A DNA stretch of 64,000 nucleotides from Aulosira sp. ZfuVER01 (GCA_034530615.2 JAVRCV020000041.1:160001-224000); one strand, 5' to 3'; positions 62 to 41,773 are shown, counted from the stretch's first letter. Made by a program: numbers and translations. Notes: generated by a model not told the origin, from the letters alone.

Positions 62-244
62 GCGATTTAATCAAAACTAAGCATCAAAAAACCACAAATG
101 AACGCTGATAAACATTAGTGTTCATTTTTGGTTAAATATCTAAAAAAATTGGGCAATTTTTGTTTACCTGAACTCATACAAGGGAACTCTAGAGAAGTAT
201 ACGTAGAGTATTCAGGAAACCCAATCCGCTACGGTCACAAAGAT

Positions 245-3241
245 ATGACTCAGCTTTCTCCCAGCCACCATGAAATATCCCCAGAAAAAATACTTCTGGA
301 AACCGAGAGTGATGAAATCCTAAAGCAAGAATTGATCGCTCTCCGGCAGAGAGTGGCGCAGTTAGAGCAAGAGTTGGCAAGCAGGCGACAGTCACAATTG
401 TTTGAGCAACAGACAAATCCAGATGAAGCTGAGAAATTCTTAAAGCAAGCAAGGGAAGAACGCCAAGCTTTGATGACAATTCTAGAAGCCAGCGCTGATT
501 TCATTGGTATTGCATCAATGGAGGGAAAACCTTTCTACCTCAACCCAGCAGGAATGAAGTTGGTTGGACTCAAAGATATAGAGGAAACAAAGACCATACA
601 TATCAGTGAATTGATAGTACATGAAGATCGGGAACTATTCCATCAAAGCATTTTACCAACTGCGATTCAGGAGGGTTATTGGCAAAGTGAATTTCGGTTG
701 CGCCATCTCATTACTGGAGAGTCGATTCCAATTGACTATACCCTGTTTGTTGTCAAAGATCCCCTCACAAACCAGCCTATTGGTTTAGCAACCATTAGCC
801 GGGATATTCGCGATCGCAAATGTACCGAACAGCGTCTTTTAGAACAAGCACAGTTGTTACAAAGTGTTTGGGAAGGTGTAGATTACGGCATCGTTGTGTT
901 GGATGTTTTGGATGATGGTGCAGAGTTCCGTTTTGTCGATTACAATCCAGCGATGGCTCGTACCAGCCCTGTGCCGATGAAAAGTCTCTTGGGCAAAACT
1001 TTGACAGAATTTTTCGCACAAGATATGGCAGACCTCTACCGTCAACGCTACGCTGCGGCTGTCTACTCTGGCAAGACTAACTTTTTTGAAGAGCATTTCT
1101 GTGCCAACGGTCAAGAAACTTGGTGGTCTTTAAGTGTCACACCCCTAAGAGATGCTAGTTCGCGCATCCATCAAATTGTCATCACCGCAACAGACATTAC
1201 AGAACGCAAACAAGCCGAAAGCTCACTGGAACAACAAGAAATCCTTTACCGCAGGATTTTTGAAAATGTCAGCGATGGTATCAACATTCTCGACTTGGAA
1301 ACGGGAGAACTTGTTGCAGCTAATCCTGCTGCTTGTCAGATGCATGGCTATTCTCAGGAAGAATTTATGAGACTTCAGCCTCCAGAATTTATTCATCCAG
1401 ATAGTCTGCCCAAGTTTGCAGAGTTTATTCGCAAAATTCAAGCAAATAGTAAATTTCACGATCGCGCAGTAGACGTGCGTAAAGATGGCACGCTGATTGA
1501 TGTTGAGGTGACAGCAACTCCTTGCTTTCTCAACAATAAAATCCATGCATTAGCGGTACTTCGAGATATTAGCGAACGCCAACGTGCCGAAGCTGCGCTG
1601 GCCGAAAGCGAAGCTAAGTTTCGCAACCTTGTAGAAGGTGCTAACGATATGCTGTGGATTTGCACGCTGGATGGAGTTCTTACCTATCTCTCCCCACAAT
1701 TTCAAGTCATGTTTGGGTACAAATCATCCGACTGGCTAGGACAATCTCTGGTACCTTTGGTTCATCCAGATGATTTAGCAACAGCAATAGCGTTGTTCCA
1801 TCAAGTTCTAGAGACTGGTGAGAAAGGAGCAGGAGTAGAATTTCGGCACAAATGCCTAGATGAAAGCTGGCGGTGGGTCAATTCTAATGCTTCCCCTGTT
1901 AAGAATGCTGAGGGGCAAATAATCGGCTTTCAGGGAATTATGCGAGACATTAGCGATCGCAAACAAATAGAAACCATCCTTGCCGAAAGTGAGTGTAAAT
2001 TCCGTCGGTTTGTGGAAGATGCCAATGATGTGATTTGGTCGTCTCAATTAGATAGTACTCTCACTTATATTTCTCCCAAGTTTCAGGATATTTTTGGCTA
2101 TGAAGTTTCTGAATGGTTAAATCGCTCGTTTGTACCTTTGATTCACCCTGACGATTTAACCCATGTTATGGAATTTCTCAACCAAATTATTGAAACAGGA
2201 GAAAGTGGTGCAGGCACGGAGTTTCGCCATCCGAAAAAAGATGGAACTTGGGGATGGGTGGCATCGAACGCCTCACCAATCAAAGACGCTGATGGAAAAG
2301 TTATCGGATTGCAGGGCATTTTACGGGATCTGAGCGATCGCAAACAAGCGGAAATTGAACTCCAGCAAAAAACTAAGGAACTAGAGCAAACTCTACAAGA
2401 ACTCAAACAAACCCAACTCCAAATGATCCAAAGCGAAAAAATGTCCAGTTTGGGTCAAATGGTGGCAGGTGTTGCCCATGAAATCAATAACCCAGTTAAC
2501 TTTATTCACGGCAATCTCACCCATATTGGTGAATATACTCAAGACTTGTTAAAGTTGGTGAAACTTTATCAGTATCACTATCCTCAGCCACCACAAGAAA
2601 TTGTAGATGAAATTGAGTTGATCGATTTGGAATTTCTCATCGAAGACTTAACTAAAGCCCTCCACTCTATGCGCTTAGGTACTAAAAGAATTCGAGAAAT
2701 TGTGCTTTCGTTGCGTAACTTCTCACGCCTGGACGAAGCCGAAGTTAAAGATGTCAATATCCACGATGGCATCGATAGCACCATTACTATCTTGCATAAC
2801 CGTTTGAAAGCACATTCAGAACGGCCAGAGATTCAAATTATCAAAGAATATGGCAACTTGCCGCTGGTAGAATGCCATGCGGGACAACTGAATCAAGTGT
2901 TTATGAACATCATCAGTAATGCAATTGATGCACTTGAGGAATACAATCGGCAGCAATCCAACACAAGTATTATCTCAATTCAGACAAAAGTAATCCAGAA
3001 CAACTGGGTGCGAATTTGTATCGCTGACAATGGCCCGGGGATAAAAGAAGAAGTTCGCCAACGTTTGTTCGATCCCTTCTTTACCACAAAGCCAGTCGGT
3101 AAAGGTACTGGCTTGGGTTTATCTATCAGCTATCAAATCGTCACAGAGAAGCATGGTGGTAAGTTATGGTGTGAATCTATACTCGGTCAGGGAACAAAAT
3201 TTATCATTGAAATTCCCATAATTTTTACACACTTGAAATAG
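245..3241 (+). CDS. Multi-PAS/PAC sensor histidine kinase
   Basis: About 5 PAS-PAC repeats (ending DI[ST][DE]RK-like), H-box MVAGVAHEINNP, and HATPase N/G1/F/G2 boxes (DNGPG, DPFFTTK, GTGLGL). ATG 245 (MTQLS) is preferred over TTG 128. Confidence 0.9.
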   Translation: MTQLSPSHHEISPEKILLETESDEILKQELIALRQRVAQLEQELASRRQSQLFEQQTNPDEAEKFLKQAREERQALMTILEASADFIGIASMEGKPFYLNPAGMKLVGLKDIEETKTIHISELIVHEDRELFHQSILPTAIQEGYWQSEFRLRHLITGESIPIDYTLFVVKDPLTNQPIGLATISRDIRDRKCTEQRLLEQAQLLQSVWEGVDYGIVVLDVLDDGAEFRFVDYNPAMARTSPVPMKSLLGKTLTEFFAQDMADLYRQRYAAAVYSGKTNFFEEHFCANGQETWWSLSVTPLRDASSRIHQIVITATDITERKQAESSLEQQEILYRRIFENVSDGINILDLETGELVAANPAACQMHGYSQEEFMRLQPPEFIHPDSLPKFAEFIRKIQANSKFHDRAVDVRKDGTLIDVEVTATPCFLNNKIHALAVLRDISERQRAEAALAESEAKFRNLVEGANDMLWICTLDGVLTYLSPQFQVMFGYKSSDWLGQSLVPLVHPDDLATAIALFHQVLETGEKGAGVEFRHKCLDESWRWVNSNASPVKNAEGQIIGFQGIMRDISDRKQIETILAESECKFRRFVEDANDVIWSSQLDSTLTYISPKFQDIFGYEVSEWLNRSFVPLIHPDDLTHVMEFLNQIIETGESGAGTEFRHPKKDGTWGWVASNASPIKDADGKVIGLQGILRDLSDRKQAEIELQQKTKELEQTLQELKQTQLQMIQSEKMSSLGQMVAGVAHEINNPVNFIHGNLTHIGEYTQDLLKLVKLYQYHYPQPPQEIVDEIELIDLEFLIEDLTKALHSMRLGTKRIREIVLSLRNFSRLDEAEVKDVNIHDGIDSTITILHNRLKAHSERPEIQIIKEYGNLPLVECHAGQLNQVFMNIISNAIDALEEYNRQQSNTSIISIQTKVIQNNWVRICIADNGPGIKEEVRQRLFDPFFTTKPVGKGTGLGLSISYQIVTEKHGGKLWCESILGQGTKFIIEIPIIFTHLK

Positions 3242-3291: not shown

Positions 3292-4671
3292 TTAGACAGA
3301 GTACTCTTTGATACGCGGCATTAGCCCGAATAAACTTAAAAGCGCGATCGCACTCACTGCAATTGAAGTTGTCATCTCAAAATTGTCTACATCGTGAAAG
3401 CCTTGCTGAATTGCCTTGTCGAAAGCTGCTTGGTTAATATCGAAACTCTTTTGATTAGTCGTTTTGAACTGCTCAAACGCCCAATCTGACTGTCCGGGTT
3501 TGTTACCTATGCATAAAGCGATCGCTTCTTGATGTTTGCCACTTTTCTCTAACTGACGAATTTGTTTATCGATATCAATATAGGTTCCCAAGCTGGAGAG
3601 ATTTGCCAGTGTCGCTTCTTTTTCACCTGCAAAAGTAATATTGTTGAGTTCCTCAGCCAAGTAACCTGTGAACCCATCTAGTTTGTTACCCTGAACTTTA
3701 TATGCTTCTGCTACTGACTTAAAGGTGTATCCATTAGGTAGTTGGGCAATTTGAGCTACATTTTGGAAAAAAGCTTGTTCGCGATCGCTAGCAAAAGCTG
3801 GGTCGAGCAAATAGCGACTTTTAGCAGCATTGGCAATATAGGCGATCGCCCTAGCTTGGCGTAATGCGTGCATAGAAGTAAAAGCATCTTCTTTCGCCAC
3901 TCGCAGATGTTGGGAAGCAGCAAGTAATGCCCCGACGGTGTAATTTAAAAAGCCAATAGCGATCGCGGTTGCTATCAACAACGCCGGATTAAAGGTGCGG
4001 CGCATCCGTTGGCTGAGAAATAGCTGAAGTCCAACCAGTACAAAGATCAGTGCAATACTGATTAGGAAAATGGAAAATATAGAGTTTCTCGTTGTAACTT
4101 GTTTGTGATTATAGGTATCTTCTAAAGCTTGCAGATTTACCTTGTCTAGTTCATCGGCTGCGGGTAGCAGTGTTTTATCCATGATTTCCGCAGCTGCGCG
4201 ATAAGCGACCAACATAGAATTAGTATCACTACGTGCGTGAGAGTCTCGTGCTTGCTGGATTTTGGTTAAGTAATTGCCTAACGCCAGTTGCATAGCCTCA
4301 ATCGGTTTGCGTTCTTTATCTCCAAAGGTGATATTTTCAGCAGCAGCCACCAGCCTTTCAGTAACTTTTGAATATCGCTCTTCATAACCCTGAACAGCAT
4401 CTTGGTTTTGCCCCGTTGGCACTAGCAATTCGTTAGCGAGATTAGCATCCATACCTGCAAGCCCATCTTTCAGGCGTTGAGCAGTAACGATACTTGGTGT
4501 TGAGTCTTGCCCAACAGTTTTGATGGCCTGTCTCTGGGATTGAACTCCGCTAATAATAGTAATTAAAAGTAAGACACTGGTTGCCCAGGTTAAATATAAA
4601 CCACCCTTGAGCAATTGCGGAGTCGTGAGTCCGCGAATAGCTTTGCTTGAGACTGTGATAATTTTACTCAT
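3292..4671 (-). CDS. GlnX-like membrane protein (4 TM, two extracytoplasmic helical bundles)
   Basis: Hydrophobic segments at the N-terminus, centre (two) and C-terminus. The central SQRMRRTFNPALL resembles the R-x-RR-x-x-N-P/x-G-L turn of actinobacterial GlnX. It lies in a PknG operon. Confidence 0.7.
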   Translation of the reverse strand: MSKIITVSSKAIRGLTTPQLLKGGLYLTWATSVLLLITIISGVQSQRQAIKTVGQDSTPSIVTAQRLKDGLAGMDANLANELLVPTGQNQDAVQGYEERYSKVTERLVAAAENITFGDKERKPIEAMQLALGNYLTKIQQARDSHARSDTNSMLVAYRAAAEIMDKTLLPAADELDKVNLQALEDTYNHKQVTTRNSIFSIFLISIALIFVLVGLQLFLSQRMRRTFNPALLIATAIAIGFLNYTVGALLAASQHLRVAKEDAFTSMHALRQARAIAYIANAAKSRYLLDPAFASDREQAFFQNVAQIAQLPNGYTFKSVAEAYKVQGNKLDGFTGYLAEELNNITFAGEKEATLANLSSLGTYIDIDKQIRQLEKSGKHQEAIALCIGNKPGQSDWAFEQFKTTNQKSFDINQAAFDKAIQQGFHDVDNFEMTTSIAVSAIALLSLFGLMPRIKEYSV

Positions 4672-4810
4672 TTGTCATTTGTCATTTGTCATTTGTTATT
4701 TGTCATTTGTCATTTGTCATTTGTTCTTCTTCCCCTCATCTCCTCCTTGTCTCCTTGTCCTCCTTGTCCCCCTTGTCTCCCCACACTTCCCACACTCCCC
4801 ACACTCCCAT
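4670..4810. repeat. STRR-type tandem repeats (TTTGTCA)n, (CCTTGTCCT)n, (CCCACACT)n
   Basis: About 7 copies of tttgtca/tttgtta followed by 9-mer and 8/9-mer arrays in the intergenic region. Confidence 0.9.
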
Positions 4811-4817
4811 ATCTCTC

Positions 4818-5474
4818 TCATCGAATAGCTTCGATCGCAATCCTTGTCCAATGTCCTAAAGTAAATTCATCTCCATCTTGTAGAGGAATATCTACCATTG
4901 GCTTTAACTCCACGCCTTTAAATTGTGTGCCGTTGGAAGAGCCAATATCGCGCAGCGTGAATGTACCATCTGCTTGACGGTTTAATAAAGCATGGCGGTG
5001 AGATACAGCATCATCAAAATCTAGTGCAATTTCTGGGTCAATTGCCCGGACTTGGCTATTGCGACCGATCAGGTTAGTTGCCTTTTCTAAAGGAAATATC
5101 ATCGGTGCTCGATCGATTGGGGGTTCGGGGCTTTCGGGATGACGCAGAGATGGGTCGATTGTCACCACCAACTGCCAACCTATAGGGGGAGACGCGGAGA
5201 CAGAACTTTGTTTTTGTGTTACCTTCTCTTCTTGTTTTGGGGTTTTGGCGATCGCTAATTCGCCATGTGCCTTAGTAACAAAGTTGTAACCACAAATTTC
5301 ACAATAGACACCGCTATCGGTTTCGTGGGGCGCACTGCAATCTGGGCAGGTTTCAAAATTGGTTGTATTCTGAGCTATGGTTTGTTCAGATATACCGAGA
5401 ATTTTGGCTCCACAGTCCGAACAAAAATCTGATTCGGTTGATTCGTGTCCTTTAGGACATTTATATGTAGACAT
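4818..5474 (-). CDS. Double zinc-ribbon + FHA domain protein
   Basis: N-terminal CPKGH..CSDC..CPDC..CEIC. The C-terminal FHA has intact pThr-binding motifs IGR, VSHRHA and DIGSSNGT. Confidence 0.9.
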   Translation of the reverse strand: MSTYKCPKGHESTESDFCSDCGAKILGISEQTIAQNTTNFETCPDCSAPHETDSGVYCEICGYNFVTKAHGELAIAKTPKQEEKVTQKQSSVSASPPIGWQLVVTIDPSLRHPESPEPPIDRAPMIFPLEKATNLIGRNSQVRAIDPEIALDFDDAVSHRHALLNRQADGTFTLRDIGSSNGTQFKGVELKPMVDIPLQDGDEFTLGHWTRIAIEAIR

Positions 5475-5546
5475 AATTGCTTTGTTCTTTGTTGTTTGTC
5501 ATGTGTCTTTTGTTTTTACAAACCACCAATGACTAATGACAAATCA

Positions 5547-6830
5547 CTAATTTGGAGATTTAGGAATCCGAGTAGTTTTAGTAGAACGAGTTTCTAATGC
5601 CATTGCATCTTCCTTTGCTATTTCTCGTTTGAGCCGTACTGTACCTGTAGGCGCATCCTGAACATCAACCACAGTTTTAAGTAGTTTGGCTGTGGCTTCG
5701 TTACCAGATTCATGCGCTAATTTCACTGCTTTGCCCAATTTAGCAGTAGCCGCTTCAATATCACCCCTAGCACGGGCTTCTAATCCTTCTTGAATTGACT
5801 GAGCTAGTTCTGCTTGTCCTGTGTAGTGAGCAACCCGGTTATTAATTTTGGTAGATTTGGCGTCATCATCTGTCCAAGTTGCCAAAATCCGGGCTTCTGC
5901 AACTTTGGTTTCCGTACCGTTGAGAGCGTACACTAAGCTGGCTCGACCTGCTAACATTTCATCACCAACATTACCGGGATTGACTTCGATGCAGAAGTGG
6001 TAATCGCGGGACTCATTGCTACCCCAAGCACCAGTAGGGTAATCCAAAATCTGCGGTTTGACGGATTTAGCACGGTGGGTAAGGTCAACAATATCGGGAC
6101 TTACTTGTTTGCAGAAGAGTACTTTTGCTCCTTGGGGTGTCCACAAACGCAAGGTGACATCGCTGAGATCCTTACTCATGGCTTTTTCTAAAATTGCGCG
6201 AAAATCCACTTCAATCATCGCTGCATTGGGAATGATATCAGTTGTACCGAGGAGTTTGCCTGCAATTTGTTGGAGTTGGGCGACTCGCCAATCAGTACCA
6301 ACACCCCGGCAATCACACTGAAACACACCTTCACACTGCTGTAAAATCTTTTTCAGTGCTTGCTCATCGGAATCGTCGTTCATGCCATCAGTGAGCAGTA
6401 ATGCTTGTCTAACAGCGTCGGGTTTCTTTTTGAACTGTGCCAGCGCTTCAGTGAGCCAGGTAGACATGAGAGTGCCACCATTAGCCACGATTTTTTTAAT
6501 TGCGGCGATCGCCTGCTCTTTCTTTTCAGGTATAGCTTTAGATACGGGGAAAACTACGCTAGCCTTACTTGAGCCAGTCACAATAAAGAAGTAAGCATCC
6601 TCTGGTAGCAAACTCACAACTTTTTCCATTGCATCCTTAGCAGCGTGAATCTTACCACCACCCATTGAACCGGAGACATCACAGATAATCCCAAATAGTC
6701 TGCCGTTGTGGGGAGTGGCGGGTACTCCATCACCTTTTTCCACGCTGACAGTCATGATGGCATGAACTTCTTTGGCACCTTGGTGTAAATATTGGTTTTG
6801 GAAAACTTCGGCTTTAAATTGGTTAGACAT
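5547..6830 (-). CDS. VWA (von Willebrand factor A) domain protein
   Basis: MIDAS DVSGS, GGT and LLTDG motifs. ATG 6830 (MSNQFKAE) is chosen because the longer ORF runs through STRR repeats. Confidence 0.9.
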   Translation of the reverse strand: MSNQFKAEVFQNQYLHQGAKEVHAIMTVSVEKGDGVPATPHNGRLFGIICDVSGSMGGGKIHAAKDAMEKVVSLLPEDAYFFIVTGSSKASVVFPVSKAIPEKKEQAIAAIKKIVANGGTLMSTWLTEALAQFKKKPDAVRQALLLTDGMNDDSDEQALKKILQQCEGVFQCDCRGVGTDWRVAQLQQIAGKLLGTTDIIPNAAMIEVDFRAILEKAMSKDLSDVTLRLWTPQGAKVLFCKQVSPDIVDLTHRAKSVKPQILDYPTGAWGSNESRDYHFCIEVNPGNVGDEMLAGRASLVYALNGTETKVAEARILATWTDDDAKSTKINNRVAHYTGQAELAQSIQEGLEARARGDIEAATAKLGKAVKLAHESGNEATAKLLKTVVDVQDAPTGTVRLKREIAKEDAMALETRSTKTTRIPKSPN

Positions 6831-6904
6831 ATTAGGGTATTGGGAATGGGGCATTGGGCATTGGGCATTGGATGAGGGAATAGTCCATCTGCCATCTGCC
6901 TTGT

Positions 6905-7864
6905 TCATAAAGCGAGAATTGCTACGGTAATGTTGTCATGTCCGCCGCTTTGGCGGGCAAACTCCACCAAGTTACGAGAGACACTAATTGCATCTTTACT
7001 GGATGATTGCTGGATTAATTTAGCCAACTGCCAAGGTTCAGGGGTATAGTTCCATAACCCATCAGTACACAAAAGCAGGTATCCTGAACCGGGAATCGTA
7101 AAGTTCACAATTGAGGGGATAGCATCTGCAACTGCATCTGCTCCTAACCAGCGAGTAATTGCATGAGCTTTGGGAGATTGTCTAGCTTCAGCTTCAGTCA
7201 TTTCTCCTGCTGCTACTACTTCATATAACCAGGAATCATCCTGAGTTAACTGTTGGGTAGCGTTGGCAGAAATCCAGTAAGCGCGGCTGTCACCCAGCCA
7301 ACCAATAGTAGCGGTATGATTATGTACAATAGCAGCAACAATAGTAGTTGATGGTGGATCGGAATTTACACTAGATACATAAGGAATTTTACATACAGAG
7401 TTGAGAGCAGCGACAAAGGCAGATTGAATCGCTAACTCTGGTTTCTCTTTTGTTTGCCAAACAGTCGCTAGTTCTAAAGATGCAGTTTCAGCAGCAGTGC
7501 GGGCTGCTAGATCGGGTTGCTCGGCACTGGAAACGCCATCACAAACTACGAGAATATTTACCTGAGAGTTATTGATCTGTTGGAGAGCGAAAAAATCTTC
7601 ATTGCGGTGATGTCGAAAACCGCGATCGCTCGCTCCTGCTAACTGTGAATTAATTATTACTTCTAGATAATCTCGCTCCTTGAGTTCTCTACGAAATCCG
7701 CAATTAGTACAGTAGCCTTCTATATCAATTGCTTCAATTCCTGCACCGCATTTTTCACAGCCTTGTGTAGCTGTTGGCGGTTTACTTGCGGTCAAAGGTG
7801 TACCGCATTCTTCACAAAAACGATCGCCTGCTAAGATAGATGCACCGCAACTCAAACATTGCAT
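6905..7864 (-). CDS. PP2C-family Ser/Thr phosphatase with N-terminal double zinc ribbon
   Basis: Motifs NEDF, VCDGVS, LGDSRAY, LLCTDGLW and GGHDNIT, plus four N-terminal CxxC pairs. Confidence 0.93.
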   Translation of the reverse strand: MQCLSCGASILAGDRFCEECGTPLTASKPPTATQGCEKCGAGIEAIDIEGYCTNCGFRRELKERDYLEVIINSQLAGASDRGFRHHRNEDFFALQQINNSQVNILVVCDGVSSAEQPDLAARTAAETASLELATVWQTKEKPELAIQSAFVAALNSVCKIPYVSSVNSDPPSTTIVAAIVHNHTATIGWLGDSRAYWISANATQQLTQDDSWLYEVVAAGEMTEAEARQSPKAHAITRWLGADAVADAIPSIVNFTIPGSGYLLLCTDGLWNYTPEPWQLAKLIQQSSSKDAISVSRNLVEFARQSGGHDNITVAILAL

Positions 7865-7883
7865 AAATATCTCCTCACCACAC

Positions 7884-10064
7884 TTAAATCAAAGTTCTCG
7901 GACGTATTCTATTTGCCTCATCAACTAAGTGAATTTTTTCTTTACCAGTTGCTAGATGGGCCATATCCCGCAAAGCTTTTTCTAGCCCTTTTCTCAGATG
8001 TACTTCTTGCAATGGTTGTCCTAGAATCTTCAAATTGTTAGCAGCTTGTAGTTGCTTGGAAGTTAGTAAATTCAAAGTTGTTTCTAATACTTGTTGAGTT
8101 AGCCGATGGCGATCCATACCTTCCAAGGTGAGTGTTTCAATGGCTGCGGAAGCTGTTTGCAATTCTTGGAAACTGGGAACAGAACGATCGCGGTTAATTA
8201 AAGTCCGGGCAATTTCGACTCGCGATCGCGTAAATAAACTAGAGGCTGGCGGTACACGTTCTAATGCTTCTACTGCACCTTTGCGATCGCCAGTTGCAGC
8301 TAGACAACGCGCTAAACCAAAGGCTGCTGTTACATAACTGAGATCGGTACGCGATACCAAATCGTACATTTTAACTGCTAGTTGATAATTTCGCGCCTGT
8401 TCTGCGGCTAACCCCAGCGCTAGTTTGGGTGCTAACTCTCCTGGTAAGTCAAAATAAACTTGATCGAAAGCTTTTTGAGCTTCTTCGGCTTTATTCTGCG
8501 CCATCAAAGCACGCCCTCGATACCAAAAAATTCGCCAGTCCCAAGGGTCTTTTTCTTCGACTTTTGCTAAAGATTGCTCTGCTTCTTCATAATCAAATGC
8601 ATCAATCAAGGTATTTGCTAATCGCAATAATGCTTCTCTAGAATTAGGAAATTGCTTAACGACTACATCTAAACTTACAGCTCGCTTGACTGGATCGGCG
8701 ATCGCACTGGCGTTAATCACTGCATTCAAAGCAGAATCGCTAGAATCTAATATTGGTAAAGGTAATTGTTGATATTCAGGTTTAATAGGTTCAAAGCTAC
8801 CACTATAAGTCATAGCCAACATATCTCCACCCAACAAATTGCTGGAAGCTGGACGAGGTACATTAGTTTCAACAGCGACAACTTCCCTCAACACACCCAA
8901 TAACTGATCTGCCATTTCATCGGCTGATTGAAACCGATCGTCGGGATTTTCCGCAGTTGCTTTAATTAGGAAGCGATAAAGAGATTCTTGGCCAGCAAAT
9001 AGCGGTTCTTCTTGAGGACTGGGTAATGTATAAAGATGTTCTTTACTAAAGCCTTTAATATCAGTTAGCAGTACTGCCAAAGTTCTCCCAACAGTAAATA
9101 AATCAGAAACGACTGTCGGGCCTTCACCTGCTTCTGGGGCACTATAACCTACTGTGCCGTAAATATCGCCATCTAAGTCGTCTATGCGGCGGACACCACC
9201 TAAGTCAATTAGTTTGACATCGCCGCCTTCGACCATAATATTGTCTGGTTTGAAGTCGCAATATACCATTCCTAAGGAATGCAAATAAGCAAATGCACTA
9301 AGAATACGGTGAATATAAGCGATCGCTTCTGGTACTGGTAAAGGCCCCCGACTTTTGCGAATTTCCCTGAGGGTTTTACCGCCGACATATTCCATGACAA
9401 TAAAACCCTCAGTACCGTGGTTGACAAAGTTGTAAATTCCCACGATATTGGCGTGTTTTACTGCTGCGAGGAACTGTCTTTCAGCCACAGCCACCGCCGC
9501 ACTAGCTGCATCTTCAGTATTCAGTAGTCCCTTTAAAACAACATAGCGAGATAGAGTTTTATCAAAGCCTAAATAAATCCAACCTAAACCACCATAAGCG
9601 ATCGCTCCTTTAACTTCGTATTGCCCGACAACCACATCACCAGGATTCAGACTCGGAATAAACGAATACTTCTGTCCGCACTTGCTACAAAATCCCTTTT
9701 CTCGCCGCAAAGGATTATTGCAATTACTACAAAAGCGCTTATTCTCCGGCACCATTGGGTTAGGAATAATCGCTTTTTCCGGCTCAGTTGAAGGTAATTC
9801 TGGTACAGAGATTAACCCTGCTCCCAATTGTCTGCGGCTACTACGAGCAGAAGTGCTACTAGTACGCCGCGAACCTTTGGAACGGTTGGTTAACGGTGAG
9901 GAACCCGTACCCGTAGTCACTGGAGAACTTCTAGCTGTAATAGTTGCGCTTTGCTTCTGGCTGCTGACATTTTGAGATTTCACCGCCGCCAACCCGCAGA
10001 CATTACAATAGCCATCTTCAATAATGCCAGTACATCCATTTCGCGTGCAGCGATCGCTGTTCAT
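7884..10064 (-). CDS. pknG: PknG-type Ser/Thr protein kinase (Zn-ribbon, rubredoxin-like, kinase, TPR)
   Basis: PMVPENKRFCSNC..GFCSKCGQKYSFIPSLNPGDVVVGQYEVKGAIAYGGLGWIYL..VLKGL..AERQFLA closely parallels mycobacterial PknG. Non-RD YCDFKPDN, DLG in place of DFG, and a TPR region (DWRIFWYRG, PGELAPKLAL). Confidence 0.9.
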   Translation of the reverse strand: MNSDRCTRNGCTGIIEDGYCNVCGLAAVKSQNVSSQKQSATITARSSPVTTGTGSSPLTNRSKGSRRTSSTSARSSRRQLGAGLISVPELPSTEPEKAIIPNPMVPENKRFCSNCNNPLRREKGFCSKCGQKYSFIPSLNPGDVVVGQYEVKGAIAYGGLGWIYLGFDKTLSRYVVLKGLLNTEDAASAAVAVAERQFLAAVKHANIVGIYNFVNHGTEGFIVMEYVGGKTLREIRKSRGPLPVPEAIAYIHRILSAFAYLHSLGMVYCDFKPDNIMVEGGDVKLIDLGGVRRIDDLDGDIYGTVGYSAPEAGEGPTVVSDLFTVGRTLAVLLTDIKGFSKEHLYTLPSPQEEPLFAGQESLYRFLIKATAENPDDRFQSADEMADQLLGVLREVVAVETNVPRPASSNLLGGDMLAMTYSGSFEPIKPEYQQLPLPILDSSDSALNAVINASAIADPVKRAVSLDVVVKQFPNSREALLRLANTLIDAFDYEEAEQSLAKVEEKDPWDWRIFWYRGRALMAQNKAEEAQKAFDQVYFDLPGELAPKLALGLAAEQARNYQLAVKMYDLVSRTDLSYVTAAFGLARCLAATGDRKGAVEALERVPPASSLFTRSRVEIARTLINRDRSVPSFQELQTASAAIETLTLEGMDRHRLTQQVLETTLNLLTSKQLQAANNLKILGQPLQEVHLRKGLEKALRDMAHLATGKEKIHLVDEANRIRPRTLI

Positions 10065-10131
10065 TTAAATCTCCTGATTGGTAATTGGGCATGGGGCATG
10101 GGGAAAGAGTCAAACTCGAAATTTTGGTTTC

Positions 10132-10394
10132 AAACGTGCAAGTTTCGGGTTCAAAGGCGCAACTTCGAGCATAAAAGGCGCAACTTCGAGGCTAAAAGGC
10201 TCAACTCTCAACCTCAAAGGCTCAACTCTCAACCTCAAAGGCTCAACCCTCAACCTCAAAGGCTCAACCCTCAACCTCAAAGGCTCAACTTTCAGCCTCA
10301 AAGGCTCAACTTTCAGCCTCAAAGGCTCAACCTTCAACCTCAAAGGCTCAACCTTCAGCCTCAAAGGCTCATCATCCAACCTCAAAGGCTCAAC
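10132..10394. repeat. 21-bp tandem repeat array, about 12.5 units, consensus AAAGGCTCAACYYTCARCCTC
   Basis: Units begin at 10153, 10174, 10195 and so on to 10384 with exact 21-nt periodicity and no spacers. Confidence 0.95.
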
Positions 10395-10447
10395 AGCTAT
10401 CATAAATTCACCACCTTGTTTGTCAACCTTGTCACCCTCAACCCCCG

Positions 10448-10470
10448 GTTGGTGAGCGAAGTCGAACCAC
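10448..10470. repeat. Small palindromic dispersed repeat (GGTGAGCGAAGTCGAACC)
   Basis: REP-like GAGCGAAGTCGAA core of a kind common in Nostocales intergenic regions, next to a GCCCCAT STRR. Confidence 0.55.
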
Positions 10471-10491
10471 ATCCCCACCATGCCCTATGCC

Positions 10492-11709
10492 CTATGCCCC
10501 ATGCCCCATACCATTCAAACGCTTTTCATATTGAGAGACTAATTCCGCGGCTTTATCTAAAGCAGTAGGGCGTGTATATAAAAGTTGCTTTGCTTGTTCG
10601 GCTAAATTGGAAAGTTTGGTATCTTCAATCAATCCTTTAGCTAATGCTTTGGCTTTGAGAGCATCCAAGCGTCCCCTTAACTCCCGACGACTCTCTAAAA
10701 GAGCGCTATTAGCAGTATATGCTCGTTGTTCTGATGCCATGTACTCTTTAGCTTTGTTTGTCCAATTGTCTAAACCGATTGTGACTGGATTGACTAAACC
10801 CTCCGCTAGCTTAGTTTCTAACCTTGTTAACCATTGACTGAGCGCATCTAATTCCACATCAGTCAATGGAGTCTGCTGTATTAAATAATCCACAATTTTT
10901 TCTTTGCTTTCCGCAAATGCAGCCAGAGAACTTGAGTGAAGTGTAGTTAATTGTTGTAACAAATCGTGAGCGATCGCAAATTTCTCTCGGATTTGGCGTT
11001 GCTGTTTCAGTGCTTGTTCGAGAACCAATTTCAGTTTTGCCAACATTGGCTGAATCTGTTGTTCAACCTCTGCACTCACCCCCAGAGGATCTTGTTCTAT
11101 CTGTTCGTGCAAAGATGAGATCGCCGCCTGACTTTGTACCAGTTCGCTTAGAGAATTCGGATCTAGGGATTCCGCTAAGTTTTGCAGTGAGTAGATTTGA
11201 GATTCTACATCCGCCAGTATGCGATCTAGATTAGCCCAAGCGACATCCACAGCTAAAACTGCATCTCTAGCCACAGAAAAAGCATGATTCATTACTTGCA
11301 ATAACTGTGCAGGTGCGATCGCATTTGCTATGTGAGTAGCAGTCAGTAGTTCTCTTTGTGCAAGCGGCGTTTGTACAGATGGTAGCTCAATTGAGGCTCC
11401 TGTTAGCAGTTGTTTTATCTCATCAATCTTTTGTTCGCTCACCAAAAAGCGTGGTAATTGCTGGCGCAACTTACTCGCCTTCTCCACTACCTCCACTAAT
11501 AAGTCGAAGTATTGAAACAAATCATTCATCGCCTCCAATGCAGGAGTTACTCGTGTCGCAGTAATTCCTTTCAAATCAACTTTAGGAAAGCCAGGGCTAC
11601 CACAAAGGCATTGATATGTTTGTAACTCTTGTAATTCCAAGAGATTTTGGCTGACAACTTTGATTTTATGTTTCCAGTCAGCTAAAAGTCGATCGATTTC
11701 ATCTGTCAC
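10492..11709 (-). CDS. Alpha-helical/coiled-coil hypothetical protein, first gene of the PknG-like operon
   Basis: 405-aa ORF, Leu/Gln/Glu/Ala-rich, with a C-terminal RRELRGRLDALKAKA motif. GTG start preceded by AGGAG. Confidence 0.8.
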   Translation of the reverse strand: MTDEIDRLLADWKHKIKVVSQNLLELQELQTYQCLCGSPGFPKVDLKGITATRVTPALEAMNDLFQYFDLLVEVVEKASKLRQQLPRFLVSEQKIDEIKQLLTGASIELPSVQTPLAQRELLTATHIANAIAPAQLLQVMNHAFSVARDAVLAVDVAWANLDRILADVESQIYSLQNLAESLDPNSLSELVQSQAAISSLHEQIEQDPLGVSAEVEQQIQPMLAKLKLVLEQALKQQRQIREKFAIAHDLLQQLTTLHSSSLAAFAESKEKIVDYLIQQTPLTDVELDALSQWLTRLETKLAEGLVNPVTIGLDNWTNKAKEYMASEQRAYTANSALLESRRELRGRLDALKAKALAKGLIEDTKLSNLAEQAKQLLYTRPTALDKAAELVSQYEKRLNGMGHGA

Positions 11710-12784: not shown

Positions 12785-15178
12785 TTATCGCTTGTTGGAA
12801 GGCTGCCAACCGCGACGCTCAAGCATTTGCCGCACCTCTGGGCTGGGATTATAGTTATAGCCATAGGAAGAACGCTCTGAGTCATCCATAATTTGAGGTG
12901 TGAGCATTACAATTACCTCTCTGCGTTCATTGCTTCTGTTGGTTTTTCTAAACAGCGAACCAATTAAAGGAATATCGCCTAAGATGGGAATTTTTGAAAC
13001 AGTTGTCCGGTCTTGGTCTTGAATAATACCTGAGAGAATTAGTGTCTGACCATCTCGCAAACGAATCATCCCCGAAGTCAGAGAGCGTTCAGACACTAAA
13101 ATGATTTGTCCATTTCCTGTATTTTCCGCGGCTGTAGGTGCGCTGACAGTCGGAGCAACCGATAGAGAAACAAAACCATTATCATCAATCCGGTCAATTT
13201 TCACATTCAGGGTTAAGCCAACTTTTTGCTTTTCTATTTGCCTCTCAGTTCTAGAGCCACCAGAAGTATCCGTTGTTTGAATAGTTATGTTTCCTACTAC
13301 TTCCTGAGTCAAGTTAACAAGAGCTTGCTGCCCTTCTTGCACAATTAAAGTTGGGTCAGTCAAAATCTTGGCGTTGCCATTTGTTACCTGAGCCTGCAAA
13401 CTTGCAAGTAACCGTTTGGGGAATTGGTATAGAGATGGCAAGCTGTATGTGTATTTAGCAGGAGTCTGACCAGTTATCTGATTACTATATGCTGTTGGTT
13501 GACCAGTAACAGGATCAAACTGAGTTGGTACAGATGTAACTGTTCCTGGAGTTCCTTCTGTATATGCTGTCAGGCCTGGTTGTAGTGGATTAGAAGTTGC
13601 GCCAGCACTAGGTACTCCTAAATTTGGATTTTGTGGATTGAGAAAAATATTTGAGCTTTGAAGCGGATTCTGAGTAGTAGGTGTCTGAGTTACACTACTT
13701 GCCACTTCAGAAGCAGTAGCTGGTCTAGAACCACCAAAATTCAGAGATGCTGCACCACCATCATTGGAAAAGAAGTTGTTCCCCACTCCAAAAGAAAAAC
13801 TGGTGTTGTAATCGTGGGTTCCTGTAAGATTCACATCAACAATTTTGACGTTAACTACCACTTGACGACGGCGGATATCAAGCTGAGTCAGTTGAGCCAT
13901 CGCAATATCAATTAGCCTAGGAGAACCAATCAAGGTAACGGAATTAGTGCGCTCATCGCCTAATGCCTGTAAACCTCTCAGTAATGGATTAGAGTCTTTA
14001 AAATCAACCCGTTGAGTTTCTAATTTAGTTTCTGTGGTGGTTTGAGTTTGGGTAACTGCGGCGGCTGAATTACCCACAGGTACAGCACTAACACTAGTAA
14101 CCAGCCGTTCACGGCTAATGGCACTTTCTGCTCCCAAACCTACTAAAAAGTTAAGGGCGACTCCCACTGTTACTTGATTCAGCCGTAGGCTACGCATTAC
14201 CGTGTCACGGGTGGAAGTAGGTAGTTTCGATCCCACAAAAACGGTGCGACCGCTACGATTCGCTTCTAAACCGCTCAAGCGCAAGACGTAATTAAACACA
14301 TCTTGTACTGGTTCGTTTTCTATATCTAGGGAGATTGTTTGAGAGATTGCTTGTCCATTAGCAGCAGTACCACCTCCTGCGCCCTCTCCTCCCACATAAG
14401 CCAAGTTAAGACCAGCCGCACGAGCTAGTAGTGACAAAACCTCGCGCACTGGCGCATCTCGCAGCACTAACCGAGGAACACGTTCCTGAGTTGCTAGATC
14501 AATGGTGCTAGGAGACGCATCAGTATTAGAGATAGCAATATCCCCTACTGGTGGGGCGACAGCTCTAGGTAAGAAAGGTGGTCCCTGATTTGGCGGTTGA
14601 CCTGGGCCAGCTGGTAGTGCAGGCTTCCCGTCAATCGTGACTTCTGGGTTGGGGACGAGAACATCTGGTTTTGTACCAGGTTGCGATGGGGTCGGAGTAG
14701 ATGGGGTTGTTGCTATGGGTGTTGTTGGTATGGGTGTGGGTGCTGTCGGTGTTGGTGTTGATGCTGTACTACCTGTGGATGGGCTAAAGCCGAGAGTAAT
14801 GCCATTTTGCTGACGCATCACAGGTTGATTGCTAGGGGCATTATTGCTTCCAGTTACCACCACCCGGATGCTATTGGCATCAAGCTGAAGAATTTCAACT
14901 GAGGCAATTCCTGAAGTGGGGTTGTCTTTGCGGAAATTATTGCCTTGTGGTAAACGTAGTTGAGTATTAATAATATCTGTAACTAAAGTGTTGCCCCTTT
15001 TGGTCGTGAAAACTTGGGGGCGCGAACCTGAAGACGTTTTCAAAACAACATTAATTCCACCATTAACCGTATTTAGCTGTACGTCAGTAATTTGGGTAGT
15101 GTTTGCCCAAACTGGTTGAGCTGCCAAAAAGACGAAAGCGGCGGTACCTAATAATAAATTACCGTGAAGCTGTTTCAC
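12785..15178 (-). CDS. pilQ: Type IV pilus secretin with AMIN domain
   Basis: Signal peptide, AMIN domain, Pro/Thr linker and secretin C-terminus (KIPILGDIPLIGSLFR). It lies downstream of pilMNO. Confidence 0.93.
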   Translation of the reverse strand: MKQLHGNLLLGTAAFVFLAAQPVWANTTQITDVQLNTVNGGINVVLKTSSGSRPQVFTTKRGNTLVTDIINTQLRLPQGNNFRKDNPTSGIASVEILQLDANSIRVVVTGSNNAPSNQPVMRQQNGITLGFSPSTGSTASTPTPTAPTPIPTTPIATTPSTPTPSQPGTKPDVLVPNPEVTIDGKPALPAGPGQPPNQGPPFLPRAVAPPVGDIAISNTDASPSTIDLATQERVPRLVLRDAPVREVLSLLARAAGLNLAYVGGEGAGGGTAANGQAISQTISLDIENEPVQDVFNYVLRLSGLEANRSGRTVFVGSKLPTSTRDTVMRSLRLNQVTVGVALNFLVGLGAESAISRERLVTSVSAVPVGNSAAAVTQTQTTTETKLETQRVDFKDSNPLLRGLQALGDERTNSVTLIGSPRLIDIAMAQLTQLDIRRRQVVVNVKIVDVNLTGTHDYNTSFSFGVGNNFFSNDGGAASLNFGGSRPATASEVASSVTQTPTTQNPLQSSNIFLNPQNPNLGVPSAGATSNPLQPGLTAYTEGTPGTVTSVPTQFDPVTGQPTAYSNQITGQTPAKYTYSLPSLYQFPKRLLASLQAQVTNGNAKILTDPTLIVQEGQQALVNLTQEVVGNITIQTTDTSGGSRTERQIEKQKVGLTLNVKIDRIDDNGFVSLSVAPTVSAPTAAENTGNGQIILVSERSLTSGMIRLRDGQTLILSGIIQDQDRTTVSKIPILGDIPLIGSLFRKTNRSNERREVIVMLTPQIMDDSERSSYGYNYNPSPEVRQMLERRGWQPSNKR

Positions 15179-17131: not shown

Positions 17132-18238
17132 TTACACCTCCCTCATTCCTAAACCCAGTACTGTCGCTAAACCAGAGCGTTGTACTACAGGGTATTTATC
17201 TTCGCTAACTTCTAAGGACAAAGATGCTATGGGATCAATTTGGGCAGTGGGCAAGCTCAATCGTTGCGTGAAGAACTCATCTAGCTGTTGCAGTCCACCT
17301 CCTGGACCAGCTAGGAAAATTTGCGCTACCTCCAAGTTTTCACTCTGATTGAGATAAAAATCGATGGAACGACGCAGTTCATCAGTGAGTTCTCCCAATA
17401 CCCTTAATAGGGCTGCCATACCCGGATTAATTTCGGTAATCCCAGTTTTCCCCCCGTCTACAGGAGTGGTCATAATCGTCATTCCCTGCAACAATTCCAT
17501 ATCCCGTGATGCCGGTAAACTCATGGCTTTCGACAGGGCTTGTTGCATTTGATAAGTGCCTATTGGCACGGTGCGCGAAAATTGTGGTATTCCGTTAACA
17601 ATGATGGCAATTTCTGAACTGTCAAACTCTATATCCACAAGTACTGCTGCTTCTTGTGGCCCGAATTGTCGCAGTTGATCGCGAATTGTCCGAATCAGCG
17701 CAAAACTGTTAATCTCTAAAACATCGATTTGCAATCCTGCTTGCTCAAATGTACTGATATATGCGTCTGTCACCTCCTTACGTGTAGCCACTAAGAGTAC
17801 TTGTACTTTTTCAATGCCATCCTCATCTACAAAGTACCCAAGTTTTTGATAATCTACATCAGCTTCTTCACGAGGATAGGGTAAATACAAAGCTGCTTCA
17901 TGGTTTAGTACCATCTCCCGCAGTTCTTTATCATCTAACTCTGCTGGTACAGGTATTAAACGTACAATTGAATCTCGTCCTGGTACAGCAGTAGCAACCC
18001 GAGAAGCTTTAATTTTACTCTCAGCTAGCGCCTGCTGAATTAATTGCGCCATTGCTGGAGGGTCGGTGATTTGACCATCGGTAACTAGTCCTTCGGGAAC
18101 TGCTACTGATGTTAAGGCTTCTATTTTAAAGCCTTGACGCTGTTTGCGTAGTTGAACTATACTCACCCGTTCTGGCGCTAGTTCAATACCGACTCCTTTA
18201 TTAGATTTGCCAAACAGACTATTGAAGCTTTTCACCAC
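17132..18238 (-). CDS. pilM: Type IV pilus assembly protein PilM
   Basis: Actin-like fold motifs GIEL, LTDELRRSIDFY, LAGPGG and GLGMR. Confidence 0.93.
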   Translation of the reverse strand: MVKSFNSLFGKSNKGVGIELAPERVSIVQLRKQRQGFKIEALTSVAVPEGLVTDGQITDPPAMAQLIQQALAESKIKASRVATAVPGRDSIVRLIPVPAELDDKELREMVLNHEAALYLPYPREEADVDYQKLGYFVDEDGIEKVQVLLVATRKEVTDAYISTFEQAGLQIDVLEINSFALIRTIRDQLRQFGPQEAAVLVDIEFDSSEIAIIVNGIPQFSRTVPIGTYQMQQALSKAMSLPASRDMELLQGMTIMTTPVDGGKTGITEINPGMAALLRVLGELTDELRRSIDFYLNQSENLEVAQIFLAGPGGGLQQLDEFFTQRLSLPTAQIDPIASLSLEVSEDKYPVVQRSGLATVLGLGMREV

Positions 18239-39967: not shown

Positions 39968-40061
39968 TTCCTTGGTGAGCGGGGCAAATATTGTTAACCT
40001 ACCCTATCACCAAGCTATCAAATTTATCAGATCTTATTACCTATCTTGATACAGAGGTAAT

Positions 40062-40325
40062 TTACAGGTGTCTACCTCTAATTACAGATTTTGGATTTTG
40101 ATTTGGGAAGTTTGTGAGAACTTTTACAGTTGAATTTTCACTCCAAATAACTGGAAACAGACATCTTGGGCTTTTACGACCACCTTTAGGACAGTCACGA
40201 TCGCAAAATTCTATTAGGTTCATTGATTTGGAACTTGCTTGGGCATCATTTTTATTCCCAAATTTTTTGCCTATTTCTGAAAAATCTTCTGATATTGCAG
40301 TTAATAAAATGAACTCCATATCCAT
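40062..40325 (-). CDS. Small hypothetical Cys-containing protein (87 aa)
   Basis: Strong RBS (GGAAAGGA) upstream of the ATG, co-directional and downstream of the WD40 genes. No family recognised. Confidence 0.45.
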   Translation of the reverse strand: MDMEFILLTAISEDFSEIGKKFGNKNDAQASSKSMNLIEFCDRDCPKGGRKSPRCLFPVIWSENSTVKVLTNFPNQNPKSVIRGRHL

Positions 40326-40454
40326 TAATTCCTTTCCATCAAAATACTTGTTGTTTCAGTATATGCTTAATACTTTCAATTCCAAAAATTTGACTCCTAT
40401 CTATAAATTGTATATTTCAATTTGGGTATTTTAAATTATAAAATTTTTATTAAT

Positions 40455-41729
40455 TTATAAATTTTTAAATAAATCTATAAAATCACTAACAGTATCTTTC
40501 ATCTTTACTCCTAGGATTTTATTTGGAGAGTTATCTAAAACATTATTTAAGATATCAATAATTGCTAATCCTTTCATACTTATTAAATAATCATAGGCAT
40601 CTGTTGATAGTCTTTCTATAAGTGCTTCTTTACTCTCACCCATGTGTATAGTATCCCAAATTCTCACATTTTTATCGTCACCGCCAGAAGCGATAAATTT
40701 ACCATCATAGCTAAAACTAACGCTATTGATTTGGACTCCATGCCAAAATTCTGCAATTGGTTGTGAATTTTCATAATCTGGATTGGTGGTACTCCAAACT
40801 CTAACAAATCCATCTTTACTACCAGAGACAAGCATATTAGCATCAGCATTAAAACTGACTCCAAAAACTGCATCTTTATGTAGACAATTTTTAATAACCT
40901 GCTCTGTAGTTATATCCCATATCCGTACACGTTTATCTTTATAAGCTGCACCGATCATCTGACCATTTGAACTAAATTTAACATCATAGACTGCATTTTC
41001 TGTGTCTTCTAAATTTTCAGATTTATCTACTAAAGATTTTAGAAATTTCTTATCAGCAACATTCCAAATTTTTATTTCACTATTTCCACCAGCAGAAGCA
41101 ATTTTAGTACCATCATGACTAAAACATACTCCATAAACTTTAGGATCGTGCTGGCCAATCTCTATAAATTCATGCCGATTATCATCTAAAAGCTGCCAAA
41201 GTCTTACTCTATTATCCCAGTTAGCTGATGTAATTAACTTACTATCAGGACTGAACATCAGCTTTAAAGCTATTTGTTCTTCATCATCTGCTTCTGGCAT
41301 AATTGTTATATCAACACTATTACCATTTATGCTTTTTATTTTGATGATTCCGTCAGCATCACCCGAAGCAATCAATTCACCATCGTAACTAAAATTAACA
41401 GCCCAAACCGGACTATCATGTTTAATCTGCAAATTTTCAATAATTTTCCAGGAAGTTGGTAAAAAAATGTCGTCTTTTTGCTTGCGCCAAACTTTGACAG
41501 TTTTATCTACACTTGCAGATGCAATCATACTCCCATCATAGCTGACTCTTACATCATTTACATTCCCATCATGTGCGGGAACTTCACCATTTTCTCTTGG
41601 TAAGCGCCGACCATATTTACCTTCATATATCATTTCCTGAATATAATAAACAGCATTCGGATTTTGTTCAATTATATATTTAATTAATTCGTACAAAATT
41701 TTTTGGAATTCACTGTTGCGCTGTATCAT
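40455..41729 (-). CDS. Stand-alone WD40 beta-propeller protein (about 7 blades)
   Basis: Repeats of H..V..V.FS.DG..IAS...D..V..W in AT-rich sequence. Confidence 0.9.
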   Translation of the reverse strand: MIQRNSEFQKILYELIKYIIEQNPNAVYYIQEMIYEGKYGRRLPRENGEVPAHDGNVNDVRVSYDGSMIASASVDKTVKVWRKQKDDIFLPTSWKIIENLQIKHDSPVWAVNFSYDGELIASGDADGIIKIKSINGNSVDITIMPEADDEEQIALKLMFSPDSKLITSANWDNRVRLWQLLDDNRHEFIEIGQHDPKVYGVCFSHDGTKIASAGGNSEIKIWNVADKKFLKSLVDKSENLEDTENAVYDVKFSSNGQMIGAAYKDKRVRIWDITTEQVIKNCLHKDAVFGVSFNADANMLVSGSKDGFVRVWSTTNPDYENSQPIAEFWHGVQINSVSFSYDGKFIASGGDDKNVRIWDTIHMGESKEALIERLSTDAYDYLISMKGLAIIDILNNVLDNSPNKILGVKMKDTVSDFIDLFKNL

Positions 41730-41773
41730 AGTTTTGTTTTTATATCAAAATATTTTTGTTACAAAAAAATACG

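Follow-up and report, generated by a model that had tools for sequence, protein, structure and literature searches.

The cyanobacterium Aulosira sp. ZfuVER01 carries a cluster of six genes whose predicted products comprise a PknG-type kinase, a GlnX-family membrane protein, and four putative signaling partners. We analyzed this cluster within a window of 64,000 nucleotides (GCA_034530615.2 JAVRCV020000041.1:160001-224000), and all positions below are counted from the first letter of that stretch. Calling of open reading frames (ORFs) placed the six genes in the same direction on the minus strand over 3292-11709, as the original prediction, made from the sequence alone, had described. In gene order, from 11709 down to 3292, they encode an all-helical soluble protein of 405 aa that matches no named family and that we call CC (10492-11709); a PknG-type Ser/Thr kinase of 726 aa (7884-10064); a PP2C phosphatase of 319 aa with two N-terminal zinc ribbons (6905-7864); a VWA protein of 427 aa shaped like the archaeal protein ArnB (5547-6830); an FHA reader of 218 aa with two zinc ribbons, shaped like ArnA (4818-5474); and a GlnX-family membrane sensor of 459 aa (3292-4671). 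The intergenic gaps, which consist mostly of short tandem repeats, measure 427, 19, 74, 72, and 146 bp from CC to glnX. From these gaps and from six loci in Acidobacteria in which the same genes abut or overlap, we infer that the six genes are co-transcribed. A scan for promoters and terminators was uninformative (19 and 7 sites versus 16.7 and 8.1 expected).

To determine how far this arrangement is conserved, we assembled a set of 82 loci, made up of the best 80 of 472 stretches matching the kinase plus two further loci; the set leans to close relatives. Four stretches (L112-L115) were excluded as duplicates of L078, L048, L038, and L076, and two unrelated vWA matches in L077 were removed before counting. 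Of the 82 loci, 52 have the full set on one strand, 49 of them in the order of the window and 3 in a permuted one, and many of the other 30 run off a contig edge. In the split clusters, every look-up of an absent VWA, CC, or GlnX gene (15/15) found it elsewhere in the genome. Across the 52 loci, the identities of the six proteins to those of the window covary (Spearman 0.88-0.98), although the close kin among these loci are not independent; with a mean identity of 78.7%, the VWA protein ranks highest among the six. In one relative (G1064), the sequences flanking the cluster are 87-92% identical to those of the window and are joined, and only the 3' end of glnX remains. Since the same chromosomal site is still occupied in relatives that are more distant, G1064 lost the cluster as one block by deletion. 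The cluster is therefore a real and conserved signaling unit, in agreement with the gene set that had been predicted.

Some loci show variations on this layout. A GNAT acetyltransferase gene lies between the kinase and phosphatase genes in 9 loci (e.g., L048:7205-7762), and a ParA/MinD-like gene follows the phosphatase gene in 3 (e.g., L038:13189-13848). Split kinase, VWA, GlnX, or CC frames occur in a few loci (L116:9622-11782, L097, L066, and L111) and reflect either decay or sequence error. Next to the cluster, a multi-PAS histidine kinase gene (128-3241) converges on glnX; it remains in G1064 after the deletion.

The kinase carries the three domains expected of PknG, namely, PknG_rubred (PF16919; E = 2e-19, 69.8 bits against a cut-off of 28.5), a Pkinase domain (E = 1.9e-31), and PknG_TPR (PF16918; E = 1.2e-66, 225.3 bits against a cut-off of 27). 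Its match to Mycobacterium tuberculosis PknG (2PZI) spans residues 78-724 with an E value of 6.1e-140, versus 5e-23 for PknB. From the N terminus, the predicted protein consists of a zinc ribbon (C6-C23), a Ser/Thr-rich linker with 8 Thr in residues 26-80, a rubredoxin ribbon (from C112), a non-RD kinase domain, and the PknG TPR domain, and it keeps the motifs GGLGWIY (158), AERQFLA (194), a non-RD catalytic loop (268), and DLG (287). In a quick tree, it groups with actinobacterial PknG (Shimodaira-Hasegawa-like approximate likelihood ratio test [SH-aLRT] support of 99), apart from six kinases of the same genome. The original prediction would have been wrong about a PknG-type kinase had the rubredoxin and TPR domains been missing and the protein nested among ordinary Pkn2-type kinases; instead, both domains are present, and it falls outside the Pkn2-type kinases of this genome. 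By these matches, the kinase is a member of the PknG family. Two ribbons were found in 76 of 77 kinases. The additional N-terminal ribbon recurs in 115 of 120 further homologs and in the Nonomuraea kinase, and in none of three PknGs from loci without a VWA gene. The kinases of Nonomuraea and of locus L117 have this ribbon and lack the rubredoxin pattern.

The membrane protein passes the NF058618 model of the GlnX family (294.7 bits; cut-off, 250). It scores 42.3 bits against NF041460, the strict equivalog model for the protein kinase G-activating GlnX (cut-off, 780); this model is narrow, since the classical GlnX of Tsukamurella also fails it, with 229.3 bits. Four hydrophobic segments and two extracytoplasmic four-helix bundles are predicted (AlphaFold2 pLDDT [predicted local distance difference test] of 90.9), and the first outer domain resembles the sensor of LytS (5xsd; Z = 18.1, root mean square deviation [rmsd] of 1.4 over 120 aligned residues) and McpS (2yfa; Z = 16.4). 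Foldseek returned no match for the membrane protein at an E value of 0.001 or better, and a profile search returned nothing. On the family model, we assign it to the GlnX family, the partner that had been predicted.

The original prediction likened the cluster to an actinobacterial-type PknG/GlnX signaling operon. This holds for GlnX and PknG, but it overlooked the absence of GlnH, an ortholog of which was found in none of the 82 loci, although 54 of the 61 GlnX-bearing loci have at least 1,200 bp visible downstream. In the three high-GC loci in which that slot can be seen (L118, L127, and L128), GlnH occupies it. Given an operon without GlnH, GlnX would either bind its ligand itself, a possibility that has been raised for GlnX before (PMC9769921, PMC6069109), or use an unlinked binding protein. 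The stricter form of the second option, in which GlnX strictly depends on a GlnH-like protein from another place in the genome, so that ordinary amino acid sensing would be the input and the difference would lie in gene order alone, is a quite conceivable alternative that we nevertheless do not favor. Mycobacterial GlnH does act through GlnX in the published accounts, LytS (the best fold match) acts together with a binding protein, and the genome carries unlinked amino acid-binding proteins of SBP family 3, from which GlnX may borrow a partner. The four GlnH-bearing GlnX proteins compared share 10-11 of 13 conserved cytoplasmic positions and 20-39 of 60 conserved periplasmic ones with the cyanobacterial family, and those from GlnH-bearing cassettes account for the upper end of the periplasmic range (38-39). 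Against this stand the missing ortholog, the low identity of these binding proteins to GlnH (22-32%), and the slot between GlnX and CC, which is empty in L055, L062, L066, and L117, where GlnX precedes CC, but holds GlnH in L128.

Two matches to binding proteins near the cluster were examined as GlnH candidates and rejected. They belong to genes resembling ligand-gated ion channels with an amino acid-binding domain, which lie on the other strand, divergent from CC, in 2 of the 82 loci (L060:94-1233 and L068:50-1195).

For the VWA protein, the most likely start is at 6830, which gives 427 aa, rather than at 6908, because the homologs start there and the additional codons overlie 7-bp repeats. 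The protein contains VWA_3 (E = 1.4e-19) and VWA_3_C (E = 4.5e-21) domains, and its predicted parts are a beta-sandwich, a vWA domain with an intact MIDAS (metal ion-dependent adhesion site), and a C-terminal helical bundle whose tail is rich in Thr. We take Pfam VWA_3_C to be the same family as ArnB_C (IPR040929) of InterPro. The available text of PMC12852372 gives ArnB_C by its InterPro entry only. Over its full length, the protein matches 4FX5, a structure of Caci_2163 from Catenulispora (E = 4.9e-106), which shares the three-part fold and MIDAS of vWA2, a paralog of ArnB (PMC6509490); ArnB itself (8S05_A) is matched with an E value of 1.8e-7. Residues D51, S53, S55, T120, D148, T419, and R421 are identical in all 43 aligned orthologs, T414, S416, and T417 are kept in 41-42 of them, and the tail motif occurs in 61 of 63 orthologs. 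In ArnB, the phosphothreonines sit in the C-terminal bundle (PMC6509490).

The FHA protein has two zinc ribbons, found in 61 of 61 proteins, followed by a variable linker and an FHA domain (E = 6.8e-14) whose phosphothreonine-binding residues (R138, S158, H161, and N181) are invariant in 42 of 42 aligned sequences. Its profile matches ArnA (8S05_C) with an E value of 3.3e-6 over ribbon and FHA domain, and ArnA chains are the sole FHA-protein matches aligned over both. FraH was not adopted as an identity for this protein, a closer-looking zinc-ribbon FHA paralog lying elsewhere on the same contig. The phosphatase matches PP2C_2 (E = 6.7e-13) and Zn_Ribbon_1 (E = 3.9e-7); its metal-binding motifs are kept in 62-66 of 66 orthologs, 54 of which have two ribbons and 12 a single one. 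As far as profiles and conserved residues can tell, then, the VWA protein resembles ArnB and the FHA protein resembles ArnA. Both proteins had been recognized in the first reading of the locus, which missed this resemblance.

In actinobacteria, the target of PknG is the FHA protein GarA/OdhI, which controls 2-oxoglutarate dehydrogenase. The OdhA domain (PF16870) has no match in the Aulosira genome, which is 99.99% complete, while the same search was positive in 6 of 14 controls; the absence of a canonical 2-oxoglutarate dehydrogenase from cyanobacteria, cited in the original prediction, holds here for the OdhA-type enzyme. The best score in the genome for the GarA/OdhI model (NF041660; cut-off, 200) is 45.3 bits, the FHA protein of the operon scores 29 bits, and an ETTS-like motif was found in none of 61 operon FHA proteins. 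Judged by gene content, with no GlnH in the 82 loci and neither OdhI/GarA nor OdhA in the genome, the cluster is not the classical pathway. A GarA-like logic with new targets might nevertheless operate, in which PknG phosphorylates the FHA protein, the free FHA protein binds and controls enzymes at the 2-oxoglutarate/glutamate node, and the VWA protein is an accessory. The characterized PknGs work through an FHA substrate (PMC8546545, PMC9769921), and the Thr-rich N-terminal linker, which in PknG recruits that substrate, is kept. However, neither the motif nor the enzyme that such a logic relies on in actinobacteria was found, and it is the VWA protein, with its invariant tail threonines, that is most conserved. 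We consider this alternative to be on the unlikely side.

CC gave no match in Pfam or NCBIfam, although its family comprises 2,011 representatives at 50% clustering. It had been described as a coiled-coil protein; its model is all-helical but consists of tandem helical bundles (AlphaFold2 pLDDT of 87.4; predicted TM-score of 0.61). The best fold matches are to EzrA (4uy3; Z = 12.3, rmsd of 4.3 over 166 aligned residues) and to 4uxv (Z = 10.8, rmsd of 8.1 over 322 residues). These scores are within the range usual for helical proteins, and EzrA clusters also appear in the Atlas. Foldseek gave no match at an E value of 0.001 or better, and a profile search against PDB sequences gave weak coiled-coil matches only. 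An EzrA/spectrin-like fold is thus a lead provided by the model. Whichever of the three gene orders a locus has, the CC gene comes directly before that of the kinase, and CC is probably a scaffold for the kinase. In single cases that may be assembly artifacts, CC is fused behind a peptidase M48, a class 3 cyclase, or an unnamed domain (P0255, P0334, and P0314).

The distribution of the cluster is patchy. A PknG_TPR match better than 1e-30 was found in 7 of 401 genomes of the phylum, the next best match being at 1.8e-9, and the VWA gene is present in the six other PknG-bearing genomes. Within the large heterocyst-forming family, the VWA ortholog occurs in 40 of 201 genomes (about a fifth) and in 17 of 67 genera; within the genus, among the matches listed, 7 of 15 genomes have the cluster and 8 lack it. 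CC was found in 2 of 201 genomes from the phylum of a Granulicella (G401), that genome included, and related kinases are on record from Burkholderiales, Geobacteraceae, Syntrophobacter, and Sericytochromatia. A quick full-length tree of 39 rows places the 13 sampled kinases of oxygenic cyanobacteria in one clade (support of 99), joined by Acidobacteria (98), within a group of 30 rows (100) that is separate from the actinobacterial and high-GC metagenome rows. In this tree and the previous one, support is SH-aLRT only, the named actinobacterial rows number four, and Chloroflexota are not represented; we claim no donor.

The original prediction considered a horizontal origin probable. In the sense of a recent import, this is not supported by our results. 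GC content at third codon positions (GC3) is 0.31-0.39 in the six genes, compared with a genome median of 0.355, and the 16 HIP1 sites of the cluster amount to 1.9 per kb versus a genome average of 0.96. Since the sampled kinases of oxygenic cyanobacteria form one clade and GC3 and HIP1 are native, the cluster is a long-standing resident of the lineage, and its patchy presence is at least partly due to loss; it may still go back to an ancient transfer. Among the matches listed, 8 of the 15 genomes in the genus lack the cluster, which might suggest a recently acquired, unused foreign island. Yet all six frames are intact, composition is that of the host, and the same site is occupied in more distant relatives while a closer one carries a deletion scar; these observations already contradict an island, which we regard as highly improbable.

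Three further occurrences of these genes stand apart. In a nonoxygenic relative (L142/L143; G698, on the same contigs as G094), there are apparently two VWA-FHA-GlnX segments, and the kinase groups with proteobacterial ones rather than with those of oxygenic cyanobacteria. Locus L053, labeled Acetobacteraceae, has a Nostoc-like cluster and comes from a genome that samples the cyanobacterial phylum, so that the label is probably wrong. A Nocardia plasmid (L119:9719-12100) carries a lone PknG gene beside genes for an amino acid permease and an NAD-glutamate dehydrogenase, without glnX or glnH.

Combining these results, we propose that GlnX activates PknG, that PknG phosphorylates the tail of the VWA protein, and that the FHA protein then binds while PP2C resets the switch; we assign this reading a probability of roughly 0.6. 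What goes beyond gene content, domains, conservation, and joint retention or loss is drawn by inference or analogy. GlnX would sense an extracytoplasmic small molecule, directly or through an unlinked binding protein, and its conserved cytoplasmic face would engage the TPR domain of PknG, by analogy with the contact proposed in actinobacteria. PknG, which CC would scaffold, would autophosphorylate its Thr-rich N-terminal linker and phosphorylate C-terminal tail threonines of the VWA protein. To contact the VWA protein, the FHA protein would use its ribbons for a loose hold before phosphorylation and its FHA domain for a tight one afterward, as in the ArnA-ArnB pair, where the zinc finger of ArnA sits on unphosphorylated ArnB (8S05) and the FHA domain binds after phosphorylation (PMC12852372). 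Kinase and phosphatase carry similar ribbons and may use them to dock on the VWA protein as a hub. The VWA protein, named as a possible output in the original prediction and a probable one in our reading, would relay the signal, probably via its MIDAS.

Several observations weigh against this reading. The ArnB match is weak, covers the vWA domain only (E = 3.6e-12), and is no better than that to ITIH4; GarA/OdhI chains score on par with ArnA in the FHA search, which also favors a GarA-like logic. In the family of PknG itself, the FHA protein is the substrate (PMC8546545), and according to PMC12852372, multi-phosphorylation switching is not a property of most ArnB-shaped proteins. In L078 and L109, the cluster has no PP2C gene, which was not sought elsewhere in those genomes, and the unlinked binding proteins mentioned above could supply GlnX with a partner.

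A different interpretation is suggested by the TerY-P systems, which combine the same three domain types (vWA, PP2C, and kinase) and whose relatives act as stand-alone defense modules (PMC11090510). A stress or anti-phage phospho-switch of this kind, its patchiness reflecting conflict, would agree with the presence in 40 of 201 family genomes and with a copy on a scaffold labeled as plasmid (L089). However, PADLOC gave no match for the VWA, FHA, and GlnX proteins and generic ones for the kinase, among the best 25 of 34 matches, and no defense, ter, or restriction genes were seen among the 45 largest neighbor clusters, as judged from representative sequences. Moreover, the identities of the six genes covary, the cyanobacterial kinases form one clade, and the viral contigs searched contain no relative of the VWA alignment. 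We find a TerY-P-like function decidedly unlikely.

As for the output of the proposed GlnX-PknG-VWA switch, a nutrient-cued change of lifestyle, involving type IV pilus motility, hormogonia, or biofilm, is our tentative guess. Nitrogen or carbon metabolism is a less plausible output, as is, to a similar degree, something outside these categories; envelope stress or defense is unlikely. Just upstream of the cluster lie genes for a PilQ-like secretin (12785-15178) and PilM (17132-18238), with a DUF760 gene between the cluster and these genes. It is tempting to read these neighbors as a hint of motility, but the adjacency is limited to close kin: pilQ lies beside the cluster in only 5 of the 82 loci, all closely related, which counts against a pilus-related role. 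In its broadest form, our proposal would make the six-gene cassette an old, cross-phylum form of PknG signaling with a bacterial ArnA/ArnB switch, a GlnX without a binding protein, and control over type IV pili or hormogonia. We see this combination as a rather long shot. Were it true, the mycobacterial GarA/OdhI pathway would be a reduced and rewired derivative of the six-gene cassette, and one mechanism would tie together bacterial and archaeal control of type-IV-pilus-like motility.

Outside the system, the 427-bp gap between CC and the kinase gene is filled with repeats (10110-10509), comprising 7-bp repeats and a 21-bp tandem array of 11.6 copies (10151-10394), similar arrays being present on five other contigs of the genome. 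This array opens spurious reading frames on both strands. Farther away, a low-GC stretch (0.31-0.39; 40001-45235) holds two long ORFs of 424 and 1,153 aa and is possibly an island.

According to PMC8546545, PknG is largely confined to Actinobacteria and linked to GlnH and GarA/OdhI; that paper notes homologs in Ktedonobacter and a Calothrix sp. and favors an ancient origin. The three-gene pathway is covered in PMC6069109, PMC9769921, and 10.64898/2026.07.02.735984. We found no published description of the operon in a search whose reach left out most subscription papers, and the available text of PMC11032199, PMC1262709, PMC7541494, PMC9600765, and 10.1101/2025.06.19.660341 contains nothing on it. 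Streptomyces SCO2666 came up in one paper, as a phosphorylated kinase only. What is new here is a GlnH-less cyanobacterial form of PknG signaling, a Calothrix PknG being already in print (PMC8546545): PknG occurs without GlnH or GarA/OdhI, in a genome without OdhA, and in about a fifth of the family's sampled genomes. The cluster offers a nonpathogenic system for asking whether GlnX binds ligands directly and a chance to learn the downstream role of an ArnB-shaped protein, a question that PMC12852372 leaves unanswered for Sulfolobus as well. It also points to a candidate function of 4FX5, a product of structural genomics, and of a helical family that has no name and comprises about 2,000 representatives.

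Compared with known systems, the cluster shares with the pathway of Mycobacterium and Corynebacterium (PMC6069109, PMC9769921, PMC8546545) a PknG composed of rubredoxin, non-RD kinase, and TPR domains; a GlnX with four transmembrane helices, two four-helix bundles, and conserved cytoplasmic residues; and an FHA protein in the circuit. In contrast, the cyanobacterial unit lacks GlnH, GarA/OdhI, and OdhA, adds an N-terminal ribbon to the kinase, and has its own PP2C, VWA, zinc-ribbon FHA, and helical proteins in the operon. Closest in layout is a seven-gene actinobacterial cassette in Nonomuraea gerenzanensis (L118), which shares all six genes and their order with the cluster, as had been anticipated for filamentous actinobacteria; there, GlnH follows GlnX, and the kinase lacks the rubredoxin ribbon by pattern. 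No characterization of that cassette was found in searchable papers. Tsukamurella and Nocardia farcinica have glnX-glnH-pknG only.

Other systems share the partners rather than the input. In Deinococcus radiodurans, one operon (DRA0331-DRA0334; 10.64898/2026.01.23.701218) encodes vWA, Ser/Thr kinase, FHA, and PP2C proteins, but its kinase is transmembrane and its phosphatase is fused to FHA; GlnX and CC are not among its four genes, and PknG does not appear in the available text. The TerY-P triad (PMC11090510) has vWA, PP2C, kinase, and zinc ribbon in common with the cluster, but in the accessible description its ribbon/OB-fold is C-terminal on the kinase and it sits with ter or restriction genes, whereas here the kinase ends in PknG_TPR, the ribbons are N-terminal, and an FHA reader and a membrane sensor are added. 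The ArnA-ArnB switch of Sulfolobus acidocaldarius (PMC6509490, PMC12852372) likewise combines a three-part vWA protein, which has a MIDAS and carries Thr in its C-terminal bundle, with an adjacent zinc-finger FHA protein, a kinase (ArnC), and a phosphatase (PP2A). The unit described here differs from it in that it is bacterial, its reader carries two ribbons, it uses PknG and PP2C instead of ArnC and PP2A, and a membrane sensor belongs to the operon; sequence identity between the two is low. Overall, the cluster would work as if a GlnX-PknG input fed a switch of the ArnA/ArnB type, being a full member of neither system.

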